Shown here: one piece after another, positions 1,082-62,635 of the stretch
Numbering within the stretch: the stretch's first letter is position 1
How the letters are laid out: each line of letters begins with the position of its first letter
NCBI RefSeq assembly: GCF_963921235.1
Contig: NC_086108.1
Location: forward strand, 86,244,001-86,308,000
Reading direction: 5' to 3'
DNA: 64,000 bases
Origin: Mobula hypostoma
Lineage: Eukaryota
Notes under the pieces: generated by a model
Seen by the model: only the letters and a program-made list of their open reading frames with translations
Databases searched by the model: none
Told to the model about the DNA's origin: nothing
Program-made: the position numbers and the translations under genes

Positions 1082-4000
1082 TCAGAATCGGAATCAGGTT
1101 TATTATCACTGACATGTGATGCGAAATTTGTTAACAGCAGCAGCAGTTCAAAGCATTACATAATATAGCAGAGAATAATTAATTAATTAACTAAATGAAA
1201 ATATAAATAAATAAGTAAATTTATTACAGTATATGTATATTGAATAGGTCTTAAAACATGCAAAAAACAGAAATACTGTATGCTTAAAAAAGTGAGGTAG
1301 TGTGCAAGGGTTCAAAGTCCATGTAGCAATCGGATGGCAGAGGGGAAGAAGCTGTTCCTGAATCACTGAGCGTGTGCCTTCAGGCTTCTGTACCTCCTGG
1401 CATACTACCAGATGACTGGAAAATTGCACATGTTACTCTGCTATTTAAGAAGGGCGGGAGGCAGCAGAAAGGAAACTATAGAACTGTTGGCCTGACATCA
1501 CTGGTTGGGAAGTTGTTGGAATCGATTATTAGGGATGAGATGACGGAATACCTGGAGGCACATAACAAGATAGGCCAAAGCCAGCATGGTTTGCTGAAAG
1601 GAAAATCCTGCCTGACTAACCTACTGCAAATTTTTGAGGAAATTACAAGCAGGGTAGACAAAGGAGATGCAGTAGATGTGGTGTACTTGGATTTTCAAAA
1701 GGCCTTTCAAAGGTGCCGCACATGAGGCTGCTTAACAAGATAAGATCCCATGGAATTATAAGGGAGTTACTAGCATTGGTGGCTGATCGGCAGAGAACAG
1801 AGTGGGAATGAAGGGATCCTGTTCTGGCTGGCTGCCGGTTACCAGTGGAGTTCCACAGGGGTCAGTGTTGGGACTGCTGCTTTTTGCGATGTACATCAAT
1901 GATTTGGACTATGGGACTAATGGATTTGTGGCTAAATTTGCCGATGATACAATGATAAGTGGAGGAGCAGGTAGTGTTGAGGAAACAGAAAGCCTGCAGA
2001 GAATCTTAGCTAGTTTAGGAGTATGGGCAAAGAAGTGGTAAATAAAATACAATGTTGGAAAGTGTATGGCCATGCATTTTGGTGGAAGAAATAAACGGGC
2101 AGACTATTATCCATATGAGGAGAGAATTCAAAGTGCAGAGATGCAAAGGGACTTGGGAGTCCTTGTGCAGGATACCCTAAAGGTTAACCTGCAGGTTAAG
2201 TCGGTGATGAAGAAGGCAAATGCAATGTTGCTATTCATTTCTGGAGGTATAGAAGGGATGTGATGTTGAGGCTCTATAAAGCACTTATGAGACCACACTT
2301 AGAGTGCAAGTTTGAGCTCCTTATTATAGAAACGATATACTGTCATGGGAGAGGGTTCAGAGGAGATTCATGAGAAAGATTCCAACAATGAAATGGTTAC
2401 GGTATGAGGAATGTCTGACAGCTCTTGGGTTGTACTCCCTGAAGTTCAGGAGAATTATGGGAGATTTCATAGAAGCATTCCAAATGTTGAAGGGCCTGAC
2501 AGATTAGATACGGCAAAGATATTGCATGGTAGGGGAGTCCAGGACAAGAGGGCACAACTTCAGGATTGAAGGACAGAGATGTGAAGAAATTACTTGAGTC
2601 AGAGGGTGGTAAATCTGTGGAATTTGTTGCCACGAGCGACTGTGGAGGCCAGGTCATTGGGTGTATTTAAGGCAAACATAGAAAGGATTAGCCAGGGCAT
2701 CAAGGGGTATGGGGAGAAGGCAGGAGAGTAGGGAATACTGGAAGAATTGGATCAGCCCATGATTGAATGGCGGAGCAGACTCGATGGGCCAAATGGCCTA
2801 CTTTTGCTCCTATATCTTATGGTCCTATGGTCTTAAAAATGCATGTCCTGGGTGCTGGAGGTCCTTAATAATGGGCGCTACCTTTCTGAGACACCGCTCC
2901 CTGAAGATGTCCTGGGTAGTTTGTAGGCTAGTACCCAGGAAGGAGCTGGCTAGATTAACAACCTTCTGGAGCTTCTTTCGGTCCTGTGCAGTGGTCCCCT
3001 CATACCAGATAGTGAAGCAGCCTGTCAGAATGGTCTCCCTGGTACATCAATAGAAGTTTTTGAGTGTATTTGTTGACATACCAAATCTCTTCAAACTCCT
3101 AATGAAGTATAGTCTCTGTTTTGCCTTTCTTATAACTGCATCGATATGTTGGGACTAGGTTAGATCCTCAGAGGTCTTGGCATCCAGGAACTTGAAACTG
3201 CTCACTCTCTCCACTTCTGATACCCCTATGAGGATTGGTATGTGTTCCTTCATTTTACCCTTCTTGAAGTCCACAATCAGCTCTTTCGTCTTACTGTCAT
3301 TGAGTGCAGGGTTGTTGCTGGGGTACCACTCCACTAGGTGGCATATCTCACTCCTGTACACCCTCTCGTCACCACCTGGGATTCTACCAACAATGGATGT
3401 ATCGTCAGCAAACTTGTAGATGGTATTTGAGCTACGCCTAGACACACAGTCATGTGTATATGGAGAGTAGAGCAGTAGAGGTGCACCAGTGTTGATCGTC
3501 AGCGAGGAGGAGATGGTATCACTAATCCACACAGATTGTGGTCTTCCGATTAGGAAGTCGAGGATCCAATTGCAGAGGGAAGTACAGAGGTCCAGGTTCT
3601 GCAACTTCTCAATCAGGATTGTGGGAATGATGGTATTAAATGCTGAGCTATAGTCGATGAACAGCATCCTGACATATGTGTTTGTGTTGTCCGGGTGATC
3701 TAAAGCCGTGTGGAGACCCATTGAGTTTGCTTCTGCTGTTGACCTATTGTGGCGACAGGCAAACTGCAATGGGTCCAGGTCCTTGCTGAGGCAGGAGTTC
3801 AGTCTAGTCATGACCAACCTCTCAAAGCATTTCATCACTGTAGGTGTGCATGCTACTGGGCGATAGTCATTAAGGCAGCTCACATTATTCTTCTTAGGCA
3901 CTGGTATAATTGTTGACTTTTTGAGACAAGTGGGAAATTCCGCCTGTAGCAGTGAAAGATTGAAAATGTCCTGGATTCTCCTGCTAGTTGGTTGGCACAG

Positions 4001-4362
4001 GTTTTCAGAGCCTTACCAGGTACTCCATCAGGACCTTCTGCCTTGCGAGGGTTCACTCTCTTTAAAGACAGCCTAACATTGGCCTCTGAGACGGCGATCA
4101 CAGGATCATCAGGGGCAGCAGGGTTCTTCCCAGCTGTAGTTGTGTTCTCCCTTTCAAAGCGTGCATAGAAGGTTTTTGAGTTCATCTGGTAATGAAACAT
4201 CGCTGCCATTCATACTATTGGGTTTCGCTTTGCAGGAAGTAATGTCTTGCAAACCCTGCCAGAGTTGCCTTGCATCTAATGTCACCTCCAATCTCATTCG
4301 AAATTATCTCTTTGCCCTTGAAATAGCCCTCCGCAAATCATGCCTGGTTTTCTGGTATACTG
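1082..4362 (-). mobile_element. Rex1/Babar-clade LINE, 5'-truncated and decayed, split by a CR1
   Basis: RT ORF 3155-3901 ([32 protein letters not shown]); upstream fragment 3880-4209 (RKAEGPDGVPG); (tctgat)n-like tail at 1082-1097. Confidence 0.88.
1399..2834 (+). mobile_element. CR1 LINE, 5'-truncated RT region and 3' UTR
   Basis: Frameshifted RT fragments (PDDWKIAHV..FKKG, SQHG..GKSCLTNL, YLDFQKAF, SGVPQGSVLG, KFADD); tail tcttatggtcctatggtctt. Confidence 0.92.
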
Positions 4363-6690: not shown

Positions 6691-7122
6691 TATCACTAAA
6701 TCAGGCCATTTGATCCAAAATGTCAATGCCTTCAGAAGATTACCATCAAATAGGAAGTTTAATATCCCAAGGCATCTTCCAAAGTTCTCAGTGTGAATAG
6801 TAGCAGTTGTGCTTAAGAATCCTAATTTAAAACTCGTGATAAAAGATGAGCTTTGAGAAGATTTTAGGAAGATATAGCTGTCATTCTGGACCAGTGGAGA
6901 GTGTGTATAAACTGTGAGCTGTGCTTGTGGGAGGGTTGGATGAAGAGTTAGTGTGTGAGAGTGGGATGGAGCCTTTGAACATTGAGCCCAGTCCTGACTT
7001 ATTACAATTATTGGCGGGTGAACGTGATCTATATTTGCAATTGAGGCCAGTGTCTCTATTGGAAGGTGATTGGATTTAAATAAATATGTTCACTGACGCA
7101 GACCAGACTGCTGACGTAATGG

Positions 7123-7610
7123 AGCAACACACACAAAATGCTGGAGGAACTCGACATGTAACGCAGCATTTGTGGAAAGAAGTGAACAGTCAACATTTCA
7201 TCAGGCCCTGAAAGGAAGCGAGCCAAAGTGAGAACAAAAGAATAGAGATAGGGGAATGGTGCAAGAGCTGGCAGGTGATAGATGCATCCAGATGAGGGAA
7301 GAAGAAAGGGGGGTGGTGGGGGGTGGGGGGAGGGAATGATGTAAAGTGGAAGGGGCAAGAGGCTGAAGAAGGAATATGATAGGAAAGGGCTCTAGACCAT
7401 GGAATAAAGGAAAGTAGGTGAGAACCAGAGAGAGGAAGAGGAAAGTTATGCATAGGTCATGAAGATGGGAGAAGAGAAGAAAATGAGGTAATGAGGCCAT
7501 GAAGATAAGGGAAATCAAAGAAACTGGAGTAACAAAGAGGAGAGGTTACCAGGGCATAGAAAAAGCATGTTGATGCCATCCTGTTGGAGACTGTAGGGTA
7601 ATGAAATTGC
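7123..7610 (-). mobile_element. Penelope-like element 3' fragment with a collapsed hammerhead motif
   Basis: Shares the acacacaaaatgctggaggaactc terminus and purine-rich UTR with 9256-10335. Minus strand reads cctgatgaaatgttgactg (stem II deleted). Confidence 0.78.
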
Positions 7611-9254: not shown

Positions 9255-9255
9255 A

Positions 9256-10335
9256 AACAAGAGACAACCTGCAGATGCTGAAAATCCAAATAATACACAC
9301 AAAATGCTGGAGGAACTCAGCAGGCCAGGCAACATCTATGGAAAAAGTTGACATTTCAGGCTGAGACCGTTCAGCAGGACTGTAAAAAGAATGATGAGGA
9401 GTAGATTTAGAAGGTGGAGGGAGGGGAGAGAGAAACACAAGGTAATAAGTGAAACTTGGAGGGAGGGATGAAGTAAAGAGCTGAGAAATTGATATGTGAA
9501 AAAGATATAGGTTAGAGCAGGGAGAGTCCGATAGAAGAGGACAGAAGGGGAGAGGAGCACCAGAGGGAGGAGACAGGTGGACAAGGAGATAAGTTGGGAG
9601 AGGGAAAAGGGGATGGAGAATGGTGAGGTGGGGGAGGGCATTACTGGAAGTTCATGAAATTGATGTTCATGCCATCAGTTTGGAGGCTACCCAGACAAAA
9701 TATAAGGTGTCATGCCTCCAACCTGAGTGTGGCCTCATCACAACAGTAGAAGAGGCCATGGAGTGACATATCAGAATGGTAATGGGTTGTGGAATTAAAA
9801 TGGGTGGCACTAGGAGATCCAGTATATGACCCCAACATACTTACAGGTGAAGTGTCACCTCACCTGAAAGGACTGTATGGGACCCTGAATGGTAGTGAGG
9901 GAGGAGGTGTAGAGGCAGGTGTAGCACTTGTTCCGCTTGCAAGTATAAATGCCACAAAGGAGATCAGTGGAGAGGGACAAATGGACAAGGGAGTCGAGTA
10001 GGAAGAGATCCCTGTAGAAAGCAGAAAGTAGGGGGGGGAGGGAAAGATGTGCTCGGTGGTGGGATCCCGTTGGAGATGGTGAAGGTTATGGAGAATTACG
10101 TGCTGGATGCAGAAGCTGGTAGGGTGGTAGTTGAGGACAAGAGGTACCCTATACCTGGTATGGTGACAGGAGGATAGGATAAGAGCAGATGTGTGTGAAA
10201 TGGAAGAGATGCGGTTTAGGGCAGAGTCAAAGGTGGAGGAAGGGAAGCCCCTTTCTTTGAAAAAGGAGGACATCTCCTTTTGTTCTAGAAAGAAGAGCCT
10301 CATCCTGAGAGCAGTTGTGATGGAGACAGAGGAAT
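9256..10335 (-). mobile_element. Penelope-like element, 3' ~1.1 kb (linker, GIY-YIG remnant, UTR, hammerhead)
   Basis: ORF 9860-10303 (FFKERGFPSS..ALNRIS..RVPLVLNYHP..HLQRDPTT..IFP); 9660-9790 matches the endonuclease C-terminus at 41029-41259. Confidence 0.88.
9345..9382 (-). ncRNA. Minimal hammerhead ribozyme motif, variant core CUGCUGA
   Basis: Minus strand: cagtc CTGCTGA a cgg tctcag cct GAAA tg TC aactt. A6>C and weakened stems. Confidence 0.55.
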
Positions 10336-10977
10336 TTGTGTTTTAAGAAGGGACAGGGTGGGAAAAGGCCTCCGTGTTATTTCTGTGATCTGTTTCTTAG
10401 ACAAGGTAAACACAAAAGGTGATGTAGTTTGAGAGTGGGAGGCTAATATAAGTAAGAGATCAGAGATGACATCTATCACCAATGCAAGAGATGTAGCTGG
10501 ATTACAGGAAATGGCAGTCAGCAGAGGAAGTTATATTAGTGTGAGGAACTTCTCAAGAGAGGAACAGGGGGTAGTGAACCCAAGGTGGAGAAGCTGTATG
10601 AATGAGATGAAGTTTTAAATCATGGTTTCATGTGCATGCTAAGAATTCAACTCTGCTTCACTGGACACACAAAGGCTCTTCCTTTGCTGTTCCATAAACA
10701 TTATGAACACAACTTTATTAATCTGTTACCTTTGCATCAAATAGATGAAAAAATTGGAGTCAAACAGTTTGAATCAACTTTTGTAGCCTTAAAGGGATAA
10801 TGTTATCTACTGAATTCATATCAATGCTGGATTACTCTGTGAGAGTGCAGTAGTTGAAAACTGTATTGGTCTTGACTGAACAGCACTCTCCTGATATGCT
10901 TCACATTTAGCTCTTAGATATTTGGTCATCACTTGCCTGCACTGGAATGGATTGGTTTAGGCACCTTGATTGATAGA

Positions 10978-15764: not shown

Positions 15765-16240
15765 GAGAACAGAAATGCTGGAAGTACTCAACAGGTCAGG
15801 CTGCATCTGTGGGAAGAGAAACAGAGTTAATGTTTTTGGTCGGAGATCCTTCATTAGAACCGGAAAGCAGACAGAAGCAAAAAAGCTGCAGGGAGGCTGG
15901 GGGGGGGGGGGGGGGGAGGGAAACCAGGGTCACCATGGGGATAAGCTATAAACAACGGTAGATGGTGGATGAACGAATGAGAGTGGTTTGAGAGTGACAG
16001 CGTAGGCAAATACTCTTCGAGCTGGGAAAAGCAGAGCAGGAAGACACACCTGGCTGATAAGGCTGTGCATGTCCTTCATTCCTAGAGAAAATAAAACAAA
16101 ATAAAGTTGGGAATATCAACCAAAAAATCACAGATGGACATTTGGTATAAATTGAGGAATTAAATTAACCAAAGTTGTGGAATTCCAATATTAAGTCCAG
16201 AAGGCAGCAAAATGCTCAGATGGAAGGTGAAGTTGTGTTT
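15765..16240 (-). mobile_element. Old Penelope-like 3' fragment with a decayed hammerhead
   Basis: gaaatgctggaagtactcaacaggtcaggctgcatctgtgg terminus; minus strand gttCTAATGAaggatctccgaccAAAAcattaac; endonuclease-end remnant at 16170-16240. Confidence 0.65.
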
Positions 16241-17214: not shown

Positions 17215-17620
17215 TTGGTTTTGTCTGGGTAGCCTCCAACCTGATGGCATGAATATTGCTTTTTCCTTCAGGTAAAAAAAATCCCTCCCCTTCCCCTCTT
17301 CTTTTATTCCCCACTCAGGCCTCTTACCTCTTCTCACCTGCCTCTCATCTCCTGTTATGTCCACCCCTCTTTCCCTTTCTCCAATGCTCTACTCTCTTCT
17401 CCCATCAGAATCCTTCCTTTCCAGCCCTTTACCTTTCCTTCCCACCAGGCTTCGCCTATCACTTCATCTATCTCCCTTCCCCTGCCCCCACCTTTTTATT
17501 CTGGCGTTCTCCCCCTTCCTTTGCAAACTTGAAGAAGGGTCTGGGCCCAAAACGTTGACTGTTTACTCATTTCTATAGATGCTGCCTGACCTGCAGAGTT
17601 CCTCCAGAATTTTGTGTGCG
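17215..17620 (+). mobile_element. Penelope-like 3' fragment with a decayed hammerhead
   Basis: gtctgggtagcctccaacctgatggcatgaa (LGSLQPDGMN), pyrimidine-rich UTR, TTGAAGA a gggtctgggccc AAAA cg TT gactg at ~17529-17561. Confidence 0.82.
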
Positions 17621-17639
17621 TCTCTATTGGTTGTGTAAC

Positions 17640-20940: not shown

Positions 20941-21130
20941 CATAATCACAAAATACTCTGCAGATGCTGGGGTCAAAGCAACACTCACAACACGCTGGAG
21001 GAACTCAGCAGGTCGGGCAGCATCCGTGGAAACGATCAGTCAATGTTTCGGGCCGGAACCCTTCGTCAGGACTGAAGAGGGAAGGGGCAGAGGCCCTATA
21101 AAAAAGGTGGGGAGGGCGGGAAGGAGAAAA
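20941..21130 (-). mobile_element. 190-bp non-coding PLE-derived insert with a hammerhead
   Basis: Perfect 12-bp TSD agaaattggcat at 20929-20940 and 21131-21142; PLE terminus sequence. Confidence 0.9.
21037..21074 (-). ncRNA. Minimal type I hammerhead ribozyme motif
   Basis: Minus strand: cagtc CTGACGA a ggg ttccgg ccc GAAA ca TT gactg. Perfect stem I (cagtc/gactg) and stem II (ggg/ccc); ACGT palindrome decayed to ACAT. Confidence 0.75.
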
Positions 21131-24089
21131 AGAAATTGGCATGTATGACATCACGGGCATGACTGAATTGTGGCTGAAAAAAGTTTATTGCTGGCAGCTG
21201 AGCATCCAAGGATACATATTGTATTGAAATACAATAGGCAGAGGTGTTGGGGTGGTTCAGTTGGTAAAAATGAAATCAAATCCTTGGAAAGAGGTAACAT
21301 ACTGTAGGATCAGAAGGTTTAGATTTGTTATTTGCTGAGCTAAGAAACTGCAAGTGTAAAAATACCCTGATGGGAGTTATATACAGACCTCAGAACAGTA
21401 TCAAAGATGTGGGCTACAAATTACAATGGGAGATTGAAAACACACGTCAAAAGGGAAATGTTATGATAGTCATGAGGGGTTTCAATATGCAGGTAGATTG
21501 GGAAAATTAGATTGGTTCTGAATCCAAGAGGAGAAATTTAGCTTATTAGAGCAGCTCATGGTTTAATGTAAAGGAAACCAGGGAAGGCAGAGATCATGAT
21601 ATGATAGAATTCACCCTGCAGTTTGAAAGGAAGGAGCTAAAATCAGTTATACAATGGAATAAAGGGAATTATAGAGGCATGATAGAGGAGTGAGCCTAAG
21701 TTAATTGGAAGGCACACCAGCAGGGATGATTGCAGAGAAGCGTTGGCTGGAGTTTCTGGGAGCAGTTCAGAAGGCCCAGGAAAGAAGAAGTATTCTAAAG
21801 GCAGGGTGATGCAACCATGGCTGACAACTGAAGTATAAGCCAACATAAAAGCTAAAGAGAGGGCATGTAATACTGCAAAAACTAGTTGGAAGTTAGAGGA
21901 TTGGAAAGCTTTTAAAAATCAGCAGAAGACAACTAAAAGAGTCATAAAGAGGGAAAAGATGGAATACAAAAGTAAGTTAGCCAATAATATCAAAGAGAAT
22001 ACCAGAAGTTTCTTTAGATATATAAAGAGTGAAAGAGGCAAGAGTAGATATCAGACCACTGGAAAATGATGCTGGAGAGATAGTAACGGGGGCTAGGAAA
22101 TGGCAGATGAATTGAAATAAGTATTTTGCATCAGTCTTTACTGTGGAAGACTCTAACAGTATGCTGGGTGTTCGAGAGTGTCAGCGGGCAGAAGTGAGTG
22201 AAGTTGCCATTACTAGGCGCTTTGCTTGGGAAGCTGAAAGGTTTGCAGACAGATAAATCAAGTGGACCAAATAGTCTACACCCCTGGATTCTGAAAGAGG
22301 TGGCAAAAGAGATTGTGGAGGCATTGCTAATGATCTTTTAAGAAACAATTGATTCTGCCATGATTCCGAAGGACTGGAAAATTGCAAATGTCACTCCATT
22401 ATTCACAAAGGGGGAGAGGTAGAAGAAAGGAAATTATAAGCCAGTTAGAGTGACCTCAGTGGCTGGGAAGATGTTGGAGTTGATTGTTAAGGCTGTGGTT
22501 TTAGGGAACAGATGCACATAATAAAACAGGCCACAGTCAGCAAGGTTTCCCAAAGGGTAAAACTTGCCTAACAAAGCAGTTGGAATTCTTCAAAGATATA
22601 ACAAGTAGGACAGACAAGGGAGAATCAGTTGATGTGTACTTGGATTTTCAGAAGGCCTTTGACAAGGTGCCCACATGAGGCTACTTAACAAGTTAAGAGC
22701 CGATGGTATTAGAGAAAAGATACTAGTGTGGATAGAGCACTGGCTAATTAGCAGGAGGCAAAGAGTGGGAATAAAGGGAGCTTTTTCTGGTTGGCTGCCA
22801 GTGACTAGTGGTGTTCTACAGGGGTCTGTGTTGGGACCACTTCTTTTTATTTTTTCTGTCAAAAATTATTTGAATGACAGAACTGACAGCTTTGTGGCCA
22901 AGTGTGCGGATGATACAAAGAGTGGTGGAAGTGCAGGCAGTGTCCATGGCGCAGAGAGGCTGCAGGAGGACTTCGGCAGATTTGGAGAAAGGGGAAAGAA
23001 GTGGCAGATGGAATAAAGCATAGGGAGTATCTGGTCGTGCACTTTGGTAAGAGTAAAGGCATGAAAGAATTTTCAACATGGGAAGAAAATTCAAACATAA
23101 AGGGACTTGAAAGTCCTCATGCAGGATTCCCTAAAGTTTAATTTGCAGATTGAATCAGTGGTGAGGAAGGCAAATATAATGTTAGCATTCATTTTGAGAG
23201 GACTAGAATATAAAAGCAATGATGTAATGTTGAGGCTTTATAAGGCATGGGAGAAGCCTCATTTGGAGTATTATGAGCAATTTTGGACCTTTTATCTAAG
23301 AAAGGACGTGCTGACATTGGAGAGAGTTCAAAGCAGGTTCATGAAAATAATTCCAGGATTGAAAGATTTATCATATGTTTGTTGGCTCTGGGCCTGTACT
23401 CACCGGACTTCAGAAGAATGATGGGGGATCTCATTAAAACCTATTGAATGTTGAAAGGCCTTGATAGAGTGGATGTGGAAGGAATGTTTCCTATGGTGGG
23501 TGAGTCTAGGACTAGAGAACACAGCCTCAGAATAGAGGGATGTCCATTTAAAACAGAGATGTGGAGGAATTTCTTTAGTCATAGAATGCAGAATATATAG
23601 AATTTGTTGCTACAGGTGACTGTCGAGGCCAAGTCATTGCGTATATTTAAGGCAGAGACTTATTGATTCTTGATTAGTCAGGGCATGAAGGGTTATAGGG
23701 AGAAGGCAGGAAATTGGGGCCAAGTGGGAAACATACCAGCCATGATGAAGTGGCAAAGCAGATTCAATGGGTCAAATGACCTAATTCTGCTCCCATATCT
23801 TTTGGTTTTATGGTCTTAGTGCAATCTATTCTCATTGCCTTTGAAGCATGTACGTGGATCAACCCTTGTTCCTGCAGATGCAAGACCTTTCCCTAACAGC
23901 CTATCTCCCTTATGCAGTGATCCAGTACAGCATCGCACAATCTTGAAGGCCACTCTCTCCCATGCTGTGCTATTCTTCAACCTTTCCCAGAAAAGAATCA
24001 CATCCTGCACAACTGATGCACCTGAACCTATCACAATTAAACTGAGGGAAGAGCCCTCCTTTAATTGGTGCTAGCCACGCACTGTATTA

Positions 24090-25230: not shown

Positions 25231-28200
25231 AACATAGAACATAGAATAGTACAGCACAGTACAGGCCCTTTGGCCCACAATGTTGTGCCGACCCTCAAAC
25301 CCTGCCTCCCATATAACCCCCCACATTAAATTCCTCCATATACCTGTCTGGTAGTCTCTTAAACTTCACTAGTGTATCTGCCTCCACCAGTGACTCAGGC
25401 AGTATATTCCACGTACCAACCACTCACTGAGTGAAAAACTTTCGTCTAATATCCCCCTTGAACTTTCCACCCCTTACCTTAAAGCCATGTCCTCTTGTAT
25501 TGAGCAGTGGTGTCCTGGGGAAGAGGTGCTGGCTATCCACTCTATCTATTCCTCTTATTATCTTGTACACCTCTATCATGTCTCCTCTCACCCTCCTTCT
25601 TCCCAAAGAGTAAAGCCCTAGCTCCCTTAATCTCTGATCATAATGCATACTCTCTAAACCAGGCAGCATCCTGGTAAATTTCCTCCGTACCTTTTCCAAT
25701 GCTTCCACATCCTTCTTATAGTGAGGCAACCAGAACTGGACACAGTACTCCAAGTGTGGCCTAACCAGAGTTTTATAGAGCTGCATCATTACATCGCGAC
25801 TCTTAAACTCTATCCCTCGACTTATGAAAGCTAACACCCCATAAGCTTTCTTAACTACCCTATCCACCTGTGAGGCAACTTTCAGGGATCTGTGGATATG
25901 TACCCCCAGATCCCTCTGCTCCTCCACACTACCAAGTATCCTGCCATTTACTTTGTACTCCGCCTTGGAGTTTGTCCTTCCAAAGTGTACCACCTCACAC
26001 TTCTCCAGGTTGAACTCCATCTGCCACTTCTCAGCCCACTTCTGCATTCTATCAGTGCCTCTCTGCAATCTTTGACAATCCTCTACACTATCTACAACAC
26101 CACCAACCTTTGTGTCATCTGCAAAATTGCCAACCCACCCTTCTACCCCCACATCCAGGTCATTAATAAAAATCAGGAAAAGTAGAGGTCCCAGAACAGA
26201 TCCTTGTGGGACACCACTAGTCACAATTCTCCAATCTGAATGTACTCCCTCCACCATGACCCTCTGCCTTCTTCAGGCATCCCATCCTGAATCCACCTGG
26301 CCAAACTTCCCTGGATCCCATGCCTTCTGACTCTCTGAATAAGCCTACCGCATAGAACCTTGTCAAATGCCTTACTAAAATCCATATAGATGACGTCCAC
26401 TGCACTACCCTCATCTATCTGCCTGGTCACCTCCTCAAAGAACTCTATCAGGCTTGTTAGACACAATCTGCCCTTCACAAAGCCATGCTGACTGTCCCTG
26501 ATCAGACCATGATTCTCTAAATGCCCAGAGATCCTATCTCTAAGAATCTTTTCCAACAGCTTTCCCACCACAGAGTATGGCTGACTGGTCTATAATTACC
26601 CGGACTATCCCTACTACTTTTTTTGAACAAGGGGACAACATTCGCCTCCCTCCAATCCTCCGGTACCATTCCCGTGGACAATGAGGACATAACGATCCTA
26701 GCCAGAGGCTCAGCAATCTCTTCCCTTGCCTCGTGGAGCAGCCTGGGGAATATTCCATCAGGCCCCAGGAACTTATCCGTCCTGATGTATTTTAACTAAT
26801 CCAACTCCTCTTCTCCCTTAATATCAACATGCGCCAGAATATCAACCTCACTCGTATTGTGCTCACCGTCATCAAGTTCCCTCTCATTGGTGAATATCGA
26901 AGAGAAGTATTCATTGAGGATCTCGCTCACTTCCACTGCCTCCAGGCACATCTTCCCACCTTTATCTCTAATCTGTCCTACCTTCACTCCTGTCATCCTT
27001 TTGTTCTTCACATAATTGAAGAATGCCTTGGGGTTTTCCTTTACTCTACTTGCCAAGGCCTTCTCATGCCCCTTTCTTGCTTTTCTCAGCCCCTTCTTAA
27101 GCTCCTATCTTTCTTTCCTATATTCCTCAATAGACCCATCTGATCCTTGCTTCCTAAACCTCATGTATGCTGCCTTCTTCCTCCTGACTAGATTTTCCAC
27201 CTCACTTGTCACCCATGGTTTTTTCACCCTACCATTCTTTATCTTCCTCGCCAGGACAAATTTATCCCTAACATCCTGCAAGAGATCTCTAAACATTGGC
27301 CACATGTCCATAGTACAGTTCCCTGCAAAAACATCATCCCAATTCACACCCGCAAGTTCTAGCCTTATAGCCTCATAATTTGCCCTTCCCCAATTAAAAA
27401 TTTTCCTGTCCTCTCTGATTCTATCCTTTCCCATGATAATGCTAAAGGCCAGGGAACGGTGGTCACTGTCCCCCAGATGCTCACCCACTGAGAGATCTGT
27501 GACCTGACCCGGTTCATTACCTAGTACTAGATCTAGTATGGCATTCCCCCTAGTCGGCCTGTCCACATACTGTGACAGGAATCCGCCCTGGACACACTTA
27601 ACAAACTCTGCCCCGTCTAAACCCTAGGAACTAATCAGGTGCCAATCAATATTAGGGAAGTTAAAGTCACTCATGATAACAACCCTGTTATTTTTGTACC
27701 TTTCCAAAATCTGCCTCCCAATCTGCTCCTCTGTATCTCTGCTGCTACCAGGGGGCCTATAGAATACCCCCAACAGAGTAACCGGTAGGCTCCCCTCCTG
27801 TTCCTGACTTCCATCCATACTGACTCAAAAGAGGATCCTGCTACATTGCCCACCCTTTCTGTAGCTATAATAGTATCCTTGACCAGTAATGCCACCCCTC
27901 CTCCCCTGTTTCCGCCCTCTCTATCCCTTTTAAAGCACTGAAATCCAGGAATATTGAGAATCCATTCCTGCCCTGGTGCCAGCCAAGTGTCTGTAATGGC
28001 CACTACATCATAATTCCATGCATGTATCCAAGCTCTCAGTTCATCACCTTTGCTCCTGATGCTTCTTGCATTGAGGTACACACACTTCAGCCCTTCTACC
28101 TTACTACATTTACACCCTTTATTCTGTTTCTCTTTCCTCAAAGCCTCTTTATAGGTTAGATCTGGCTTTACTCCACACACTTCTTTCACTGCTCTATCGC

Positions 28201-28360
28201 TCTGGGTCCCATCCCCCTTGCAAATTAGTTTAAATGCTCCCGAACCATGCCAGCAAACCTACCTGCAAGGATATTGCTCCCCCTTGAGTTCAGGTGCAAC
28301 CCATCCAATCTGTACAGGTCCCATCTTCCCCATAATAGATCCCAATGATCCAAAAATTTA
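25227..28360 (-). mobile_element. CR1 LINE, relatively young: ORF1 C-terminus, complete but frameshifted ORF2, 3' UTR
   Basis: Endonuclease 27671-28189 (LKCVYLNARSIRSK, YDVVAITDTW), GVFYRPP, LDLVL, GDSDH; RT 26221-26571 and 25424-26257 (SGVPQGSVLGP, FADD, LVRPHLEYC); (tctatgt)n tail. Confidence 0.95.
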
Positions 28361-29360: not shown

Positions 29361-29526
29361 TTATACAGCATAAAAAGTTAATCCTTTCTGCAGGTAAGAA
29401 GACTAAAAGAATATGAATTACCACATGTCTAGTCTCAGTAAGCTTCATCAAGACTTATATAATTGTGGAACAATAACTTTACTGTTGTACTCAAATCTTT
29501 TTGCAAAAGAATCCAAGCTACAAATG

Positions 29527-30120
29527 CAAACAACAGGAATTCTGCAGATGCTGGAAATTCAAGCAACACACATAAAAGTTGCTGGTGAACGCAGCAGGCC
29601 AGGCAGCATCCCTAGGAAGAGGTGCAGTCGACGTTTCAGGCCGAGACCCTTCGTCAGGACTAACTGAAGGAAGAGTGAGTAAGGGATTTGAAAGTTGGAG
29701 GGGGAGGGGGAGATCCAAAATGATAGGAGAAGACAGGAGGGGGAGGGATGGAGCCAAGAGCTGGACAGGTGATAGGCAAAAGGGATACGAGAGGATCATG
29801 GGACAGGAGGCCCGGGGAGAAAGACAAGGGGGGCGGAACCCAGAGGATGGGCAAGGGGTATATTCAGAGGGACAGAGGGAGAAAAAGGAGAGTGAGAGAA
29901 AGAATGTGTGTTTAAAAATAAGTAACAGATGGGGTACGAGGGGGAGGTGGGGCATCAACAGAAGCTAGAGAAGTCGATGTTCATGCCATCAGGTTGGAGG
30001 CTACCCAGACGGAATATAAGGTGCTGTTTTTCCACGTCCCATTCCCATTCTGACATGTCTATCCACGGCCTCCTCTACTGTAAAGATGAAGCCACACTCA
30101 GGTTGGAGGAACAATACCTT
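29527..30120 (-). mobile_element. Young Penelope-like 3' fragment with an inverted 5' segment
   Basis: 29570-30034 is close to the reverse complement of ~41180-41660; 30031-30120 is a plus-strand piece (STSHSHSDMSIHGLLYCKDEATLRLEEQ). Confidence 0.92.
29625..29662 (-). ncRNA. Minimal type I hammerhead ribozyme, canonical core
   Basis: Minus strand: tagtc CTGACGA a ggg tctcgg cct GAAA cg TC gactg. GUC triplet and ACGU palindrome present; predicted cut between 29630 and 29629. Confidence 0.85.
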
Positions 30121-40655: not shown

Positions 40656-41028
40656 ATTTTAATTTTGTTTGATTAGCGACTTTAATACTTAAATCATTAC
40701 ACATACCTACGGACCACACATCATTTAAAGTAAACAGCTTAATTTATTGCAACCCTCTGTCACTTTTGCAACCACTCTAAGAATAGCCAATAGCCAATGC
40801 GTTCATCTTCTCAGTGAAAGCAACATTCAGCTCTTTGAAATGATATGCCCAGATGGTTAAAGCCTTGGCACGGTTTTAGTGGTTATTATGCTGGATTGTC
40901 CTGGAGTCAGGCCTCAATCCACAACACATGACAGAAAGCTGAATCAGGAATTCCATTTGGAACACTGCTGGCTATCATTCAGCACTATTTGGCTATTTTA
41001 TGATGAAGATTGAACTGCATCACTCAAA

Positions 41029-41259
41029 TTGGGAGATCGTTTTGCTGAACACCTACGCTCTGTCCGCCAGAGAAAGCAGGATCTCCCAGTGGCCACACAT
41101 TTTAATTCCACATCCCATTCCCATTCTGACATGTCTATCCACGGCCTCCTCTACTGTAAAGATGAAGCCACACTCAGGTTGGAAGAACAACACCTTATAT
41201 TCCGTCTGGGTAGCCTCCAACCTGATGGCATGAACGTTGACTTCTCTAACTTTCGCTAA
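41029..41259 (+). pseudogene. C-terminal half of a PLE GIY-YIG endonuclease (5'-truncated, frame open)
   Basis: LGDRFAEHLRSVR..LPVATHFN..HS..RLEEQHLIFRLGSLQPDGMN, showing the R..EH, E and G.N motifs typical of the PLE endonuclease. Confidence 0.85.
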
Positions 41260-41564
41260 TGCCCCACCTCCCCCTCATACCCCAACCATTATTTATTTAT
41301 ATACACACGTTCTTTCTCTCTCTCTCTCCTTTTTCTCTCTCTGTCCCTCTGACTATACCTCTTGCCCATCCTCTGAGTTTTTTTATTCCCCCCTCCCACT
41401 TTTCTTTCTCCCTGGGCCTCCTGTCCCATGATCCGCTCGTATCCCCTTTGCCAATCATCTGTCCAGCTCTTGGCTCCATCCCTCCCCCTCCTATCTTCTC
41501 CTATCATTTTGGATCTCCCCCTCCCCCTCCAACTTTCAAATCCCTTACTCACTCTTCCTTCAGT

Positions 41565-41602
41565 TAGTCCTGACGAGAGGTCTCGGCCTGAAACGTCGAC
41601 TG
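41565..41602 (+). ncRNA. Minimal type I hammerhead ribozyme, canonical core
   Basis: tagtc CTGACGA g agg tctcgg cct GAAA cg TC gactg. Stem II agg/cct; predicted cut after 41597. Confidence 0.85.
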
Positions 41603-41864
41603 TACCCCTTCCTAGAGATGCTGCCTGGCCTGCTGCGTTCACCAGCAACTTTGATTTGTGTTACTTTTTTTCCTTTTATGGTTCTATGTGTCAGATTTCA
41701 TTGGCTGTTGATAATTGGTAATTGTTTCATTATTTTTATATGCAGTGAGTTACAGTGAAAATATTTGCTTTGCATGCCATTTATACAGACATTTTGACCA
41801 CATTGTATGTTGAGGTAGTATAAGGAAAAAGCAATAACTGAATGCAGAGTAATATACCAGGTTG

Positions 41865-43430
41865 GGTTCTGAAAGACTCCGCAGCCCAACTAACTGAGTT
41901 CAACATCTGTCTGTAACAGTCCATTGTCCCCTCAGTTTTCAAGGCAGCAACCATCATTCCAGTGCCAAAGAAAGAGACAGTAACCTGCCTAAATGACTAT
42001 CGTCTGGTGGCATTAACATCAACCATGATGAAAGACTTTGAGTGGCTGATCATGGAGCATATTAAAGCCTTACTCCCAGCTATATTGGACTGATTCCGCT
42101 TCGCTTATCACTCAAGTCCATCCACTGATGATGCAATAACCTCTGTCCCATCCCACCTGGAAAATGGGGTCTTATATGCCTGACTGCTGCTTATAAACCA
42201 GAGTTTGGTGTTTACACCATCATTCCCCCCCGCCCAAAACTGGTGGGGAAACTGTCTTCACAAACAGAAGAAAATCTGCCGATGCTGGACGACCGAGCAA
42301 AACGCACAAAATACTGGAGAAATTCAGCAGGCCAGGCAGCATCTAAAAAAAAGAGTACAGTCGACATTTTGGGCTGAAACACTTCGGCAGGACTAGCTTC
42401 TGTTATTGCTTTTCCCAATCCCGCTGAAGGGTTTCAGCCTGAAATGTCGACTGTACTCTTTTTTTAAGTGCTGCCTGGCCTGCTAAGTTCCTCCAGCATT
42501 TTGTGTGTGTTGCTGGGTAACTGTCCTCTCTGGGTCTCAACACCTCCCTCTGCAAATGGATACAGACTTCCTAGCAGACTTCCTTGTGGGCAACAACGTC
42601 TCTAGTCTCATTACACAGTCGCTCCCCAAGGCTGTGTCCTCAGCCCGTTGCTGTTCACACTGCTGACACCTGACTGCATTACAGGATTCAGCTCAAACCA
42701 TGTCTTCAAGTTTGCAACACAACACTGGTTGGCCTAATCCAGAACCTTGATGAGACGGAGTACAGAAAGGAAGTAGAGTGGCTGCTGGATTGGTGCGAGA
42801 AGAACAGCCTAAGCCTGGAAGTGGACAAGGCCAAGGAAATCACTGTGGAGGTCAGGAAGGTGCAGACAAACCATCCCCCTCTTCGAATACACGGCTCCTC
42901 TATAGGGAGAGTTAAGTGCACCAAGTTCCTGGGAGTTCACATCATGGATGACTTCACCTGGTCCCTTAATATCATCTCCCTGAACAAGAAGGCACAGCAG
43001 AGCCTTCACACATTCGTCAGGAGTGCTGCATATGCAGCACCCTTAGAATTATTAAGGATCCCACCCATCCATCCATTATCCTCTTTGACTTTCTACCATC
43101 AGGCAGGAGACATAAAAACATGAATGGTCATGATTGGAAACTTGTTTCTTCCCTCAGGCCATTAGGCTGCTGGCCTCCCTGCCATATCATATCCAAAATG
43201 TCACTGGTTAATCTGTTCGATACATTACAATATTTAATTAATGCACTTTAGTTTGTTATTGATGTGTGATTTATCTGTAGATTTTACCCTTACCTTCATA
43301 AGCTATTGTGTGTTATGTGCACGACTGTGCTTTACACCCTGGTTTGGGAAACATCTATTTCTATATACAATATATGGTTATATACATTATATACATGCAT
43401 TTAGTTAAATGACAATAAACTCGACATGAC
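41865..43430 (+). mobile_element. Rex1/Babar LINE, decayed RT region and 3' UTR
   Basis: [53 protein letters not shown]; tail aaatgacaataaactcgacatgac. Confidence 0.85.
42259..42514. mobile_element. Foldback PLE-derived insert with two opposed hammerhead motifs
   Basis: Inverted arms ~42296-42393 and ~42418-42514; TSD gggaaactgtctt (42246-42258) / gggtaactgtcct (42515-42527). Confidence 0.85.
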
Positions 43431-43860: not shown

Positions 43861-44127
43861 CCTTCCTTCCGAGAGGCAGCCAGTGAAAATGATCAACGTA
43901 GCAGTCCGCAGAGGAAACAAAACAATAAACAGCACTCTTTCAGATGTCAAAGATGTACAGTACATCATATGCTAGTTCAAAGGGAAATGCCTGGCTAACA
44001 CAAAACTGCACTGGGTGAATTGCAATTGTATCCATGGGACCCCAGTGTGCTGTAGAAAATAATATTAAGCACGGTAGAACAATATTACTTGAAAGAAATG
44101 TTTCGATCCTGATGGAGGTGATTCTAT

Positions 44128-45815
44128 ATGTGAATGTGAATGTGACTGGGTATAAGTGAATGTGCATGTGGGTATACTGGGTATAAGTGAATGTGAGTGT
44201 GACTGGGTATAAGTGAGTGTGAGTGTGACTGGGTATAAGAGAATGTGAATGTGGGTATACTGGGTATAAGTGAATGTGCATGTGGGTATACTGGGTATAA
44301 GTGAATGTGAGTGTGACTGGGTATAAGTGAGTGTGAGTGTGACTGGGTATAAGAGAATGTGCATGTGGGTATACTGGGTATAAGTGAATGTGAGTGTGAC
44401 TGGGTATAAGTGAGTGTGAGTGTGACTGGGTATAAGAGAATGTGAGTGTGACTGGGTATAAGAGAATGTGAATGTGGGTATACTGGGTATAAGTGAATGT
44501 GCATGTGGGTATACTGGGTATAAGTGAATGTGAGTGTGACTGGGTATAAGTGAGTGTGAGTGTGACTGGGTATAAGAGAATGTGCATGTGGGTATACTGG
44601 GTATAAGTGAATGTGAGTGTGACTGGGTATAAGTGAGTGTGAGTGTGACTGGGTATAAGAGAATGTGAGTGTGACTGGGTATAAGAGAATGTGAATGTGG
44701 GTATACTGGGTATAAGTGAATGTGCATGTGGGTATACTGGGTATAAGTGAATGTGAGTGTGACTGGGTATAAGTGAGTGTGAGTGTGACTGGGTATAAGA
44801 GAATGTGCATGTGGGTATACTGGGTATAAGTGAATGTGAGTGTGACTGGGTATAAGTGAGTGTGAGTGTGACTGGGTATAAGAGAATGTGAATGTGGGTA
44901 TACTGGGTATAAGTGAGTGTGAGTGTGACTGGGTATAAGTGAATGTGAGTGTGACTGGGTATAAGAGAATGTGAATGTGGGTATACTGGGTATAAGTGAG
45001 TGTGAGTGTGACTGGGTATAAGTGAATGTGAGTGTGACTGGGTATAAGTGAGTGTGAGTGTGACTGGGTATAAGTGAATGTGAGTGTGACTGGGTATAAG
45101 TGAGTGTGAGTGTGACTGGGTATAAGCGAATGTGAGTGTGACTGGGTATAAGTGAATGTGAGTGTGACTGGGTATAAGTGAATGTGAGTGTGACTGGGTA
45201 TAAGAGAATGTGAATGTGGGTATACTGGGTATAAGTGGGTGTGAGTGTGACTGGGTATAAGTGAATGTGAGTGTGACTGGGTATAAGAGAATGTGAATGT
45301 GGGTATACTGGGTATAAGTGAGTGTGAGTGTGACTGGGTATAAGTGAGTGTGAGTGTGACTGGGTATAAGTGAGTGTGAGTGTGACTGGGTATAAGTGAA
45401 TGTGAGTGTGACTGGGTATAAGAGAATGTGAATGTGGGTATACTTGGTATAAGTGAATGTGAGTGTGACTGGGTATAAGTGAGTGTGAGTGTGACTGGGT
45501 ATAAGTGAGTGTGAGTGTGACTGGGTATAAGCGAATGTGAGTGTGACTGGGTATAAGTGAATGTGAGTGTGACTGGGTATAAGGGAATGTGAATGTGGGT
45601 ATACTTGGTATAAGTGAATGTGAGTGTGACTGGGTATAAGTGAGTGTGAGTGTGACTGGGTATAAGTGAATGTGAGTGTGACTGGGTACAAGTGAATGTG
45701 AGTGTGACTGGGTATAAGTGAATGTGAATGTGACTGGGTATAAGTGAGTGTGAGTGTGACTGGGTATAAGTGAGTGTGAGTGTGACTGGGTATAAGCGAA
45801 TGTGAGTGTGACTGG
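44128..45815. repeat. Minisatellite/satellite array, 26-bp unit gactgggtataagtgagtgtgagtgt with a 31-bp variant
   Basis: About 60 units read directly; the 31-bp variant has gggtatactgggtataag. Confidence 0.97.
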
Positions 45816-46693
45816 TGTTACGAGAATACACATAAAATTAAGATGTTTGCTGGCCTGGGCTAGCATCAGTGGCATCAGCAGTTGGTCTGCCACCTGCCCT
45901 CAGGGGAAGGAGAGATAAGGAACAATGGAGCAGCGTCTGGAGATGTGTAATGAAGGGATGTGGGAGGAAGAGCTGTCTGGAGCGGCTCCCCCCTTTGAAC
46001 CCTGAACTGTTTGAAGTGATGGACAGGCGATACCCCAGCAGGGGGATAAAAAGGGACAGGTTCGCTAAGACAGACACACGCCACCCGAGGTAACGAGACC
46101 CTGGAAGCGGTGCGCTTCTCACGAGTGGGTGAGAAGTGCCAGACAACGACAAGGGTGGAAAGGTACGATCAGCGGGAACCCGGTGTGTGTCCGCCCTTGC
46201 CTGGGTGCCGGGTTCACTGCAGAGGATCGACCGCATCTGGAGGAGGGGTCACAGTCGGTGGCCTCAGGTAACATCACCAAGGACCTGCCCAAAAGCTGTT
46301 TGTGAGCCATCCCGCTGGTCTGTGAGCCATCTTGCTGGTCTGTGAGTGAAGCCGTTCTGAATGATGAGTTGTTCCTATTCTATCTCTCTCTTCCCCCACG
46401 TTGTCCACCGCCATGGCAACGATTACTGCGAACTGAACTACTAAACTGGACTGAACTTTGAGTCATTTTGAAATTGGTCATTTACCCCTAGACAACGACA
46501 GAGCTTGATTGATGCTGTTATCTTAATTCTGTGCACATGTGTGTTTATCATCACTGAACTGTTGCATTTATTATCCTTTCGATTACTGTGTTGCTTGTTT
46601 CTGTAATGAAACTTTCTTAGTTCTAGTACTCCAGACTCCAACTGAGTGATCCATTTCTGCTGGTTTGGCAACCCAGTTACGGGGTACGTAACA
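45816..46693 (+). mobile_element. Solo LTR, 878 bp, inserted in the satellite
   Basis: Perfect 7-bp terminal inverted repeat tgttacg/cgtaaca; 4-bp TSD ctgg at 45812-45815 and 46694-46697; TATA-like gataaaa at ~46045. Confidence 0.92.
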
Positions 46694-50253: not shown

Positions 50254-50281
50254 CCCCTTCTTGGAAACAAACCTGGTTTTA

Positions 50282-50346
50282 AGCATCACACATAAAAGTT
50301 GCTGGTGAACGCAGCAGGCCAGGCAGCATCTCTAGGAAGAGGTGCA
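50282..50346 (-). mobile_element. 65-bp PLE terminal fragment lacking the hammerhead
   Basis: Nearly identical to 29562-29626. Confidence 0.85.
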
Positions 50347-53575: not shown

Positions 53576-53675
53576 ACTGCTGATGAAGGGTCTCAGCCAA
53601 AAATGTTGACTGTTTACTCCTTTTCATAAATGCTGCCTGGCCTGCCGAGTTCCTCCAGCATTTTGTGTGTGTTGC
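53576..53675 (+). mobile_element. 100-bp PLE terminal fragment starting at a hammerhead motif
   Basis: CTGATGA a gggtctcagcca AAAA tg TT gactg ... gagttcctccagcattttgtgtgtgttgc; G12>A. Confidence 0.82.
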
Positions 53676-56098
53676 AAATAATACTGTTCGTAGCCTTGGG
53701 CCAGAACGAATGAGAAGCTGACATAGGTCAGTCAGATGAGCCTGAGCCAATGAAATTGAAACATAACTGATTAATTTGATAAGGAAAAGGTTAAGAATGA
53801 AGAATTTTGGTAGTGGAGACAGCAACAATGCTGGAGATCAAACACAGCAGAAGTGGATGACTCATGACAAAAATGTGAATATTTATCAGAATTAAAAGGA
53901 ACTCCTGGCCGGCTCAGACTGCTTTTTCCAGGCATTTCCTTTTCTATGCTTCAGAGAGGGGCAAGGGAAACCTTGTTGGTGTGAACATCGGTATTTAGAT
54001 TTGTATAATTTGCATGCTTGTTCAGTGAGCCAATAAAGGTATTTGTCAGTACATCCAGATAACTGATTATCATTGTTATCATTCTGCAGTAGCTGCAACA
54101 TTACTGTTGCCTACAGTTGAAAGGGACAAGAGATGGTAAGTGGGAGAAGATCTTTGCCTGGACAGCAGGTTCTTGATCCTGGTCAGCATGTCCAATGCCT
54201 ATATTTTTTTTTCTTTTGTCTAGCATATAAATTCAACCTTCTTTCAATTGTTCTTCTCTGCTTCCTCTGGAACCTGGAAAAAGAGAGGGATAGAGAGGGA
54301 TGCTCCTTGGTATACATAGGCAGAGGCAAAACTCAATCTCATTTGTAGCTGTGTCATGAGGAGAGAATTAATGCATTAGGTCAAGGACACTTCATCGTAA
54401 ATGCACCTGCTGGGTTCTCCTGACATATTCTGCTTTTATTTTGGATTTTGAGCAGGTGCAGATTGCTATAATTGCTGTTCTCTATGCAATCACAGATAAG
54501 AGATGGGCAGCAACTTTAAAAAAATCACTATTTTAGTCATTAAAACAAGACAATAAACAAGAAACAGGATTGAGAGAAGCTGCTACAACCACCTAGTGAA
54601 TTCCTCTTTGAAGAAAGAAGAAACAACGTTGTTTACTTTAAATCATTTAATGCAGAGAAATATTGAATGCAGGATTCTCAAGACATGATAGTTGCAGTTC
54701 CTTTGTGGATAGATTTCAATGATGTTTAACATTGGTTTTGGATCCACGGATTCCAATGTGAAATCTATGTATTGTGCAATGACCAATCTATAGGGTAAAT
54801 TCAGAACAACACAAGCATTATTCAAAATTGTGGGCAGAAGAGTGAGCAGAGGTTTGGTGAACCAATGGGAAGGACACAGCAAAATGAATATCAATAAAAT
54901 AGCATGAATTCTGTTAGTAATACAAGCTAATAAATTTAAACCAAAATACAGGCATTTCAGATGCTTCAAGGTATCTATTTAAAAGAAGATTATGCTTTAC
55001 GATTGTGGTTAAATTTTACTTTGTTGAAATAATGAAGTTATTTAAAATTAAAACTCGGTAAATTTTCAGAATGGCATTAGTGTGGAGTTGTAATAGCATT
55101 TATCATTAATTATTGATTTCTTGTGTGTCAGGTTTGCACTAATGTCCATCAGTTCATAATATACAGCTTCATTAAAAACAATGGGGTGAATTGTAAAATT
55201 CTTGAATATGTACAGAAGATGACAATAGACAATTAATTCCCATGCAGGCAGATTGCTGCCTTTGTGTTGCTTGTATCCTGACATGATTGTTGTGTAAAGT
55301 CTTGGCTAACCATTCAGTTCAAAGACTGCAGACTTCAGCCGAGATTTAGATTTTGTCAGCAGCACCTATCACTTAGAGTTAGCTCACACTACTTAAAGCA
55401 GGACAGTCCTTATTAAAAGTAAGACACATTAAGGCAACAGCAATTAGTAACCAGCAATTGGGTAAGGCTTGTCAGGAGACAAAATGCTTAGTGGATATAG
55501 CTACATTGAGTGGAATGGTTGATAATGTTACAAAGAAAAAATGGTAAACCATAGATTAGATAATTTTAAAAATGAGAAGAAAGATGACTGAACATTAGCT
55601 GCCACTTTGGAGCCCCAGGGACACTCAGGGTGTCCAATAAGTGAGTGTAGCCAAACCCATTTCTCATCAATATGTTCATAAAAATGGTGACAACTGCAAA
55701 TTTGCAAACAACACTTAAATATAAAAATTGTAGTCTATAAAAGCATGTAAAATTGCCACAAGAAAACTGATTTTCTCAGCTGTAAAAAAGTATGTTCAGA
55801 GCTTTTCACTTTACCTATTTCTTGCAAAAACAATCCGTGTAAAGACTTCCAGAAATAAGAAAATACTAATTAGTGCTTGTTGCATTCGAGGGTCCTGAGC
55901 TAGAGTGTGGGGGAAGTTTGTGCATGCCCTAATTCCCTTCCTTGAGCCTACTTTGGTTAAATGAATTTTTGTAAGGCACTATATTAGAAATTCTGAATCA
56001 GAATCAGAATCAGGAATAACTAGCATGTGTAATGAAATTTGTATGATGCAATACATGATAATAGAGCTACAAACTGAATTACAGTAAATGTATATGTA

Positions 56099-62294: not shown

Positions 62295-62424
62295 AGCAAA
62301 AAAAAATGCTGATACTGGAAACCTGGAAAACACATAAAAAACACGAGAAATAAATATCAGGTTAGGTAGTATCTGTGATGTGAAAAACATCATCAGAATG
62401 TCAGATCAGTGACCTTTCATCAGA
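62295..62424 (-). mobile_element. Ancient PLE terminus with a decayed hammerhead
   Basis: Minus strand tCTGATGA a aggtc act gatct GACA; aaatgctgatactggaaacctg terminus. Confidence 0.6.
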
Positions 62425-62635
62425 TCAATATGATTGCAGATACTGTATGGTGGAAAGGAGTGAAATTATTATATTCTGTGGTAGTAAAGAATGAAGTTCT
62501 GTGGTGTGAGAGGGTGAAAATGTATTGATTCAAAGTGGAGGCATTTGAACTCATACAGAATCCCAGCTCCATTATTCTTTGCAAACAATTGTCCACTTTG
62601 TTGATCAGGTTAATTACCATTTTTGACTGGAAATT

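Follow-up and report, generated by a model that had tools for sequence, protein, structure and literature searches.

What is the 38-base motif at positions 41565-41602 of the plus strand, and why do so many of its relatives lie in the same 64 kb of Mobula hypostoma DNA, the stretch that is called the window in this contribution? A sequence-only reading of the window had taken the motif for a minimal hammerhead ribozyme, and its letters and pairing were confirmed exactly as written there. We identify it as a minimal hammerhead of type I (min-HHR), located in the 3' pseudo-LTR (pLTR) of a 5'-truncated Penelope-like element (PLE) of the Neptune type. In the numbering used for the family, C3 of the core is position +1 (41570). 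Stem I is formed by UAGUC and GACUG (41565-41569 with 41598-41602; -1 to -5 with +29 to +33) and consists of four Watson-Crick pairs and one U.G pair. C3 to A9 read CUGACGA (41570-41576) and are followed by an extra G (41577), by stem II with the strands AGGU and GCCU (41578-41581 and 41586-41589) around a CUCG loop, by GAAA (41590-41593), by the palindrome ACGU at 15.2-16.2 (41593-41596) and by C17 (41597). Cleavage is predicted between 41597 and 41598. The focal copy thus has the core CUGANGA...GAAA...UH, a helix I of 4-5 bp and a helix II, and it lacks helix III. The extra nucleotide between 9 and 10.1 is a G in the focal copy; in the family it is an A in all 26 young copies and in 63 of the 68 old ones.

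The description of the core as canonical holds for the 11 core bases, all of which are kept, but not for the closing pair of stem II. Here the conserved G10.1-C11.1 is replaced by A-U, the consequence of a private GAGG in place of the AGGG of the family. In 26 young copies position 11.1 is U (19), C (5) or G (2), mostly giving a G.U pair, and other subfamilies, like 15 of 17 distant PLEs, retain G10.1-C11.1. Because the G-C pair persists there, we regard A-U as a within-family variant that does not exclude the focal copy from the class. The copy at 29625-29662 represents the family better than the focal copy.

That the resemblance to a hammerhead arose by chance is a reading to which we assign a negligible probability. 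The folding energy of the focal motif is indeed unremarkable (z -0.88), and a scan of Rfam returned no hammerhead family at E<=1; in the Rfam sense the motif is not a canonical type I hammerhead. However, a structure descriptor composed of core, stem II and stem I gave three matches in the window and none in the reversed window, and a descriptor search as proposed by the sequence-only reading, performed on 680 kb of random genome (68 regions of 10 kb), gave 22 matches against 0 in the control. The motif has a fixed place in the element, and its fold covaries across phyla; the descriptor controls together with the covariation in distant PLEs refute a chance resemblance. A pattern for the core by sequence alone matched three times in the window, compared with a shuffle mean of 0.62, and three matches were reached by 1 of 100 shuffles. 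In the predicted fold of the monomer GACG of the core pairs with CGUC, which is an inactive fold. For the young family a further hairpin is predicted from -19 to +11 (41551-41580), in which the pyrimidine tract pairs with the core and positions -4/-3 lie in the loop. As a switch acting against the ribozyme this hairpin was rejected: 10-33% of shuffles were equally strong, and it is absent from copies with an A6C exchange in the core.

Table 1. Features of the focal element and related copies in the 64-kb window.
Feature	Position	Strand	Basis or remark
PLE ORF remnant, 5'-truncated: C-terminal GIY-YIG endonuclease part, codons 940-1016	41022..41259	+	stop TAA 41257-41259
Pyrimidine-rich 3' UTR/pseudo-LTR	41260..41563	+	flanks the ORF on both sides in full-length copies
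Predicted 3' splice site: branch-point-like TACTCAC, pyrimidine tract, CAG; 6 nt before core	41546..41563	+	sequence; putative function
Minimal type I hammerhead, focal	41565..41602	+	sequence, descriptor, fold
Positions -4/-3, YYAGTCC: family-wide 5'-end hotspot	41566..41567	+	insertion-end counts
3' terminal segment, ends at first of two family 3' end clusters, without 35-nt tail	41603..41666	+
Young copy, same family: intact hammerhead 29625-29662, tail, short inverted 5' arm 30030-30120	29526..30120	-
Second subfamily, hammerhead 21037-21074: core intact, palindrome lost (ACAU)	20945..21131	-
Divergent inverted pair, A6C subfamily: 42358-95 minus, 42416-53 plus; both further core-damaged	42261..42517	.
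Older truncated copy: ORF remnant and A6C-type hammerhead 9345-9382, stem I broken	9255..10336	-
Old decayed copy, C3U and G12A	17441..17621	+
Old short copy, begins at core, G12A	53578..53678	+
Old decayed copy	15772..15906	-
Old copy, stem II deleted	7120..7298	-
Young copy truncated just 3' of hammerhead, absent from the sequence-only reading	50277..50346	-	profile match

The sequence-only reading had listed 11 motifs of the window as one dispersed family. A family profile retrieved 10 of these 11 (E 1e-16 to 1e-67) and did not retrieve 62392-62424; the sequence at 62330-62445(-) is probably a very old hammerhead-like end of another PLE family, with GAAA changed to GACA and a different stem II. 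All 11 core bases are kept by only three of the 11 listed copies, those with C3 at 41570(+), 29657(-) and 21069(-), and two copies of the window keep both core and palindrome. The other listed copies have G12A, A6C, U4C, C3U or a deletion of stem II; A6C is found at 9345-9382 and 42358-42453. The GIY-YIG remnant, whose stop lies ~310 nt upstream of the focal motif, is 97% identical (tblastn) to the intact 1016-aa ORF of locus L062, and blastn gave 89.6% over 41022-41666. The focal copy extends through the -4/-3 hotspot, and the branch-point-like TACTCAC reads TACTAAC in some copies of the family. The window also contains fragments of LINE-type (APE/RT) retrotransposons (3155-4012, 25424-28258, 41870-42240 and 42540-43150), one of which encloses the inverted PLE pair (42261-42517). 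A 70-bp near-perfect inverted repeat at 6135-6210 matches miRNA-precursor models below their gathering scores and is likely a MITE-type hairpin. A degenerate tandem repeat of considerable length occupies 43940-45900; its GC skew is strong, and its minus strand has open frames of ~600 codons.

A pattern for the junction of pLTR and 5' UTR has 375 exact copies in the genome, and a stop-free ORF of 1016 aa was present in five of eight junction loci that were retrieved as a whole; one of the five, L068, has an internal frame-shifted stretch. The five ORF-bearing loci have flanking repeats with 98-99% identity and a hammerhead in both of them on the sense strand, in agreement with the fixed place in a Penelope-like terminus that had been claimed. 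The distance from the hammerhead to the ATG amounts to 166 nt in four of the five loci and to 171 nt in L064. The 5' repeats of full-length copies vary in length, the shortest having tens of bases and the longest 1,995 bp. The two repeats of a locus differ at 0-7 sites, which is not consistently below the differences between loci; those of L063 differ at 0 sites, compared with 3-11 against other loci. The single ORF combines an RT with a C-terminal endonuclease of the GIY-YIG type that carries a CCHH motif, as in EN+ PLEs of the Neptune clade; the Pfam matches to RVT_1 and GIY-YIG were below the curated cut-offs, and the motifs were read from the sequence. Partial tandems, inverted 5' copies and a tail of 30-40 nt, as known for the Neptune clade, are present as well. 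The assignment to the Neptune type is based on layout, domains and the linker that joins RT to EN, where CKRNKCYTC in L062 fits CX2-5CxxC, a feature of the Neptune clade that is common to Nematis (PMC8557442). The closest named relatives are from Chiloscyllium punctatum (69-72%), which fits a cartilaginous fish as host.

A very high genome-wide load of the motif had been anticipated from the window, and this is supported. In 3.48 Gb, a tight 31-nt core pattern is found without mismatch 55,143 times (control 0), and an adjacent 20-mer 102,412 times. The random sample of 680 kb contained 165 element remnants and 22 descriptor-intact motifs, from which ~840,000 remnants and ~112,000 intact motifs can be extrapolated. 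Since the sample exceeds the two true counts (31-nt pattern and 20-mer) by 20-45%, we estimate several hundred thousand remnants and ~10^5 intact motifs. The PLE family that carries the motif is recently active and has more than 55,000 near-perfect copies. Hammerhead counts given in the accessible text of PMC4209133 are ~4,000 for coelacanth and ~9,000 for Xenopus.

Conservation was determined for 95 copies of the random sample that span the motif, 26 young and 69 old ones. The motif is fully intact in 16 of the 26 young and in 2 of the 69 old copies. The sequence-only reading had named a core no better conserved than its flanks as evidence against a ribozyme. In old copies the core is better conserved (88.1% versus 78.1% for the flank, p=0.036; stem I 85.9%, loop II 74.3%), but a block of the flank from +48 to +58 equals the core, and the conservation could therefore partly reflect promoter or protein-binding constraints. 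The comparison is also ill-posed for dead-on-arrival copies because selection acts on the master lineages, so that subfamilies are the proper comparison. Of 68 old copies, 17 have A in place of the catalytic G12, and other G residues of CpG sites are changed in 24 of 68, 25 of 65 and 27 of 63. G12 is thus lost at about the CpG rate, and the dispersed copies decay neutrally, without purifying selection.

Clustering on the sequence outside the motif separated four main subfamilies, whose fold is the same while N7 and loop II vary and the flanks have diverged. The A6C subfamily (core CUGCYGA) has 4,029 exact matches, and 26 of 30 inspected matches (L327-L356) carried the diagnostic flanks. In other hammerheads A6C strongly lowers cleavage with Mg2+ and favours Mn2+, according to the accessible text of PMC7151607. 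When the descriptor was applied to distant PLEs (80 metagenome loci, 28-63% protein identity), it gave 19 matches, 17 of them on the sense strand, with 0 in the control; removal of one duplicate and one inverted repeat copy left 17 for comparison. At most positions their stems use four or five pair types, and G10.1 (17 of 17), the palindrome (17 of 17) and the extra A (15 of 17) recur although none of them is demanded by the descriptor. The fold shared by the subfamilies and these recurring features therefore argue for a real fold that is selected on master elements, where it is maintained probably for RNA processing at another step of the cycle. The notion of a stem II that varies yet stays paired needs correction: its differences in the window are mostly CpG decay and subfamily differences rather than two-sided compensation, and covariation is found across distant PLEs only.

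The ends of the insertions indicate which RNA is copied. The 5' ends of young copies were counted as four non-family bases followed by 7-8 family bases with one 20-nt anchor, at six positions that include one internal control (+12). We obtained 234 ends at -6, 1,665 at -4, 1,960 at -3, 817 at -2, 284 at the control and 370 at the cut site (+29). The maximum of the 5' ends thus falls on the outer border of stem I, whereas no spike was found at the cut site (370 versus 284 at the single control position). TSD-flanked simple insertions make up 9 of 30 inspected cases at -3, 6 of 30 at -4 and 0 of 30 at the cut site. Among 100 listed ends at the cut site, 24 fold back through complementary stem I sequence, and 13 were joined by microhomology at TCCT|GAC. 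Cleaved RNA is therefore not the preferred template; it may contribute slightly, the count at the cut site being 1.3x that of the single control position. The same is described for the PLE of the anole, for which the accessible text of PMC11167929 reports uncut RNA as the dominant substrate and no reads ending at the cut site. At the other side, the 3' ends cluster at ~+93-97 and ~+129-133, that is ~65 and ~100 nt downstream of the cleavage position, and so bound the 35-nt tail. Copies that stop at the outer edge of the ribozyme are a sizeable minority, roughly 18% if the capture is ~0.24, a value of our own estimate.

The sequence YYAGTCC at the edge of stem I is kept in all four subfamilies and resembles the initiator consensus. 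The peak at -4/-3 likely marks a real 5' end of an RNA, most simply a transcription start at this initiator-like sequence. We rate a transcription start at not quite an even chance, a drop-off of the RT as a credible but lesser possibility and a nick by a nuclease as unlikely. Most copies that continue into the ORF reach far upstream of -4, which counts against a main transcription start at this place. A single extra G of the cap type was found in none of 15 TSD-flanked young copies and in one old copy. Splicing to host exons was rejected as the cause of the peak because the TSDs directly abut the start in 9 of 15 TSD-flanked cases, and a second hammerhead register cutting UUA|G was dismissed because neither stem would pair.

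Two loci, L069 (C2:157.816 Mb) and L085 (C50:58.412 Mb), are TSD-flanked tandems of a 310-nt unit that comprises hammerhead, tail, 5' UTR and the first 47 codons. At the junction, identical in both loci, codon 47 of the ORF (CAT|GT) is joined exactly to CAG|TTAGTC; this junction occurs six times in the genome, all from the two loci. The GT donor is present in 13 of 21 ORF copies (fixed in the lineage of L085, mixed in that of L069), and the AG acceptor lies 6 nt before C3 of the core. By their alleles, the units stem from two different donor lineages, and the two tandems thus arose independently. The splice-type junction suggests that these tandems were generated by rolling-circle copying of a back-spliced circular RNA. 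Spliced templates that use the CAG acceptor are not common, as the 5'-end count at -6 is at baseline. Other tandems (L070, a 262-bp tandem; L437, a 145-bp tandem of an inverted pair) have non-splice junctions, and therefore template jumps also make tandems. In mini-elements, to which L070 and L437 belong together with L032, L036, L038, L051, L053, L057 and L058, a short 5' piece of the ORF is joined to a second pLTR end at non-splice junctions that vary, and the same strand thereby has two hammerheads at a distance of 150-450 nt. As a tentative proposal, for which we see a fair case but less than an even chance, the copied RNA would have its 5' end at the edge of the ribozyme instead of the cut site, and the RT could roll round a circle that is back-spliced to the acceptor in front of the ribozyme.

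With high confidence we assume that the motif is the min-HHR of the pLTR of a recently active Neptune-type PLE, that its cleavage is likely weak and confined to the dimer or to the presence of the element's protein, and that its copy number results from the adjoining RT start and not from selection on each copy. The RT would start at the two tail sites and copy through the uncut ribozyme, so that nearly every truncated insertion would carry the motif. Lying next to the RT start, the motif would multiply as a passenger, and it would be kept on the masters for a processing role that is invisible at the insertion ends. Min-HHRs have been described as inactive as monomers and weakly cleaving even as dimers (accessible text of PMC4209133), with dimer cleavage of minimal hammerheads ascribed to Lunse et al. 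(as cited in PMC6765202), and the anole PLE ribozyme needs the protein of its element, and insertion in vitro can do without this ribozyme (PMC11167929, as far as accessible). In the model of de la Pena, an essential and active ribozyme would cut both pLTRs of tandem transcripts, the unit would be circularized by ligation, and the RT would copy the circle into more-than-unit insertions. A religated circle would give no spike at the cut site, and the variable length of the 5' repeats (tens of bases to 1,995 bp) at 98-99% identity to the 3' repeat, the identical repeats of L063 (0 differences versus 3-11 against other loci) and the retention of the fold across distant PLEs are all consistent with this model. 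We nevertheless hold it to be rather doubtful: repeat differences within loci (0-7) are not consistently lower than those between loci, a subfamily was amplified with the A6C exchange (4,029 exact matches; diagnostic flanks in 26 of 30) that impairs Mg2+ cleavage elsewhere (PMC7151607), and in the accessible text of PMC11167929 insertion in vitro is unaffected by ribozyme mutants.

The A6C subfamily also fits a catalytically vestigial signal in RNA or DNA, such as a promoter, a splice context or an RNP-binding site, that merely has the form of a hammerhead, and the same is true for G.U or A-U replacing G10.1-C11.1 in young copies, for the predicted pairing of the monomer core with CGUC, for a core that is predicted to be sequestered when the upstream sequence is present and for the overlap of stem I with an initiator-like motif and a splice acceptor. 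A sequence signal, however, would not explain why all core bases and the palindrome are kept in distant PLEs, because the stems there differ wholly, and the upstream hairpin is matched by 10-33% of shuffles, which makes a mere signal quite unlikely in our view. We consider it very unlikely that intact dispersed copies act within host pre-mRNAs, by pairing in cis or trans, and impose a genome-wide load of self-cleavage. There are ~10^5 descriptor-intact copies, and, judged from the sequence and the geometry of the dimer, the GUC/GACUG half of a same-strand copy ~850 nt downstream could serve as partner of the focal core; cofolding of the focal and the 42416 copies, however, gave no heterodimer, dispersed copies decay neutrally, and the published activity is low (PMC4209133, accessible text). 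The weakly cutting ribozyme that is amplified beside an RT start therefore remains our preferred reading.

PLE-borne minimal type I hammerheads are a published class (PMC4209133), as the sequence-only reading had noted. To judge from the accessible parts of this source, the present family resembles the min-HHRs of metazoan PLEs in being of type I without stem III, in the palindromic 15.2-16.2, the helix I of 4-5 bp, the extra base between 9 and 10.1, the location in the pLTR and the occurrence mostly as single dispersed copies and close opposite-strand pairs. It differs by at least 55,143 exact copies, by mostly G.U at 10.1-11.1 (A-U in the focal copy) and by the A6C subfamily. Two of the three supplements of PMC4209133 have no entry for shark, Callorhinchus or Leucoraja, and what remains of the supplements may list hammerheads of cartilaginous fish. 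A literature search, in which subscription literature was poorly covered, found no account of the present PLE family or of the 5'-end peak. Poseidon of Anolis carolinensis (PAc) has the same order of pLTR, ORF and pLTR, two RT start sites that bound a tail of 30-40 nt and inverted insertions consistent with extension of both strands (PMC11167929); the insertion ends of both elements agree in showing no cut-RNA template. In contrast to PAc, the present element has a Neptune-type Cys linker, a ribozyme that precedes the ATG by 166 nt, where that of PAc overlaps it, and a 5'-end peak at the edge of stem I, which is not described in the accessible text of PMC11167929. Penelope of Drosophila virilis is similar with regard to a spliceosomal 3' splice site, which maps to the 5' end of helix I, and an internal promoter in the pLTR (PMC2377424, PMC4209133, accessible parts). 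Its transcription start, however, lies ~120 nt upstream of the end of the intron, and the intron was shown by RT-PCR (PMC2377424), whereas splicing in the present family is deduced from just two genomic junctions. Non-LTR retrozymes, as outlined in the accessible part of bioRxiv 10.64898/2026.07.22.740005, are tandem units of 50-1000 bp that each have a type I hammerhead and derive from PLE pLTRs. The 310-bp tandems L069 and L085 fit this layout, although tandems are rare here and have a splice-type junction; the focal copy, a single truncated PLE end, falls outside the definition of at least two tandem non-coding units with a hammerhead.

What we describe is thus a new and extremely abundant family within the published class of PLE min-HHRs. 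As the class is known, the finding itself is ordinary, and its value lies in the scale: ~10^5 young insertions make the role of the PLE hammerhead testable by counting, and the A6C subfamily and the G.U closing pair, as natural variants, and the candidate back-spliced circle lend themselves to direct tests. If our tentative proposal of an RNA that begins at the edge of the ribozyme and of a back-spliced circle is true, PLE circles and retrozyme-like tandems would arise without ribozyme cleavage, the A6C subfamily could multiply despite its impaired core, and the insertions in this genome would represent a fossil record of the PLE cycle.
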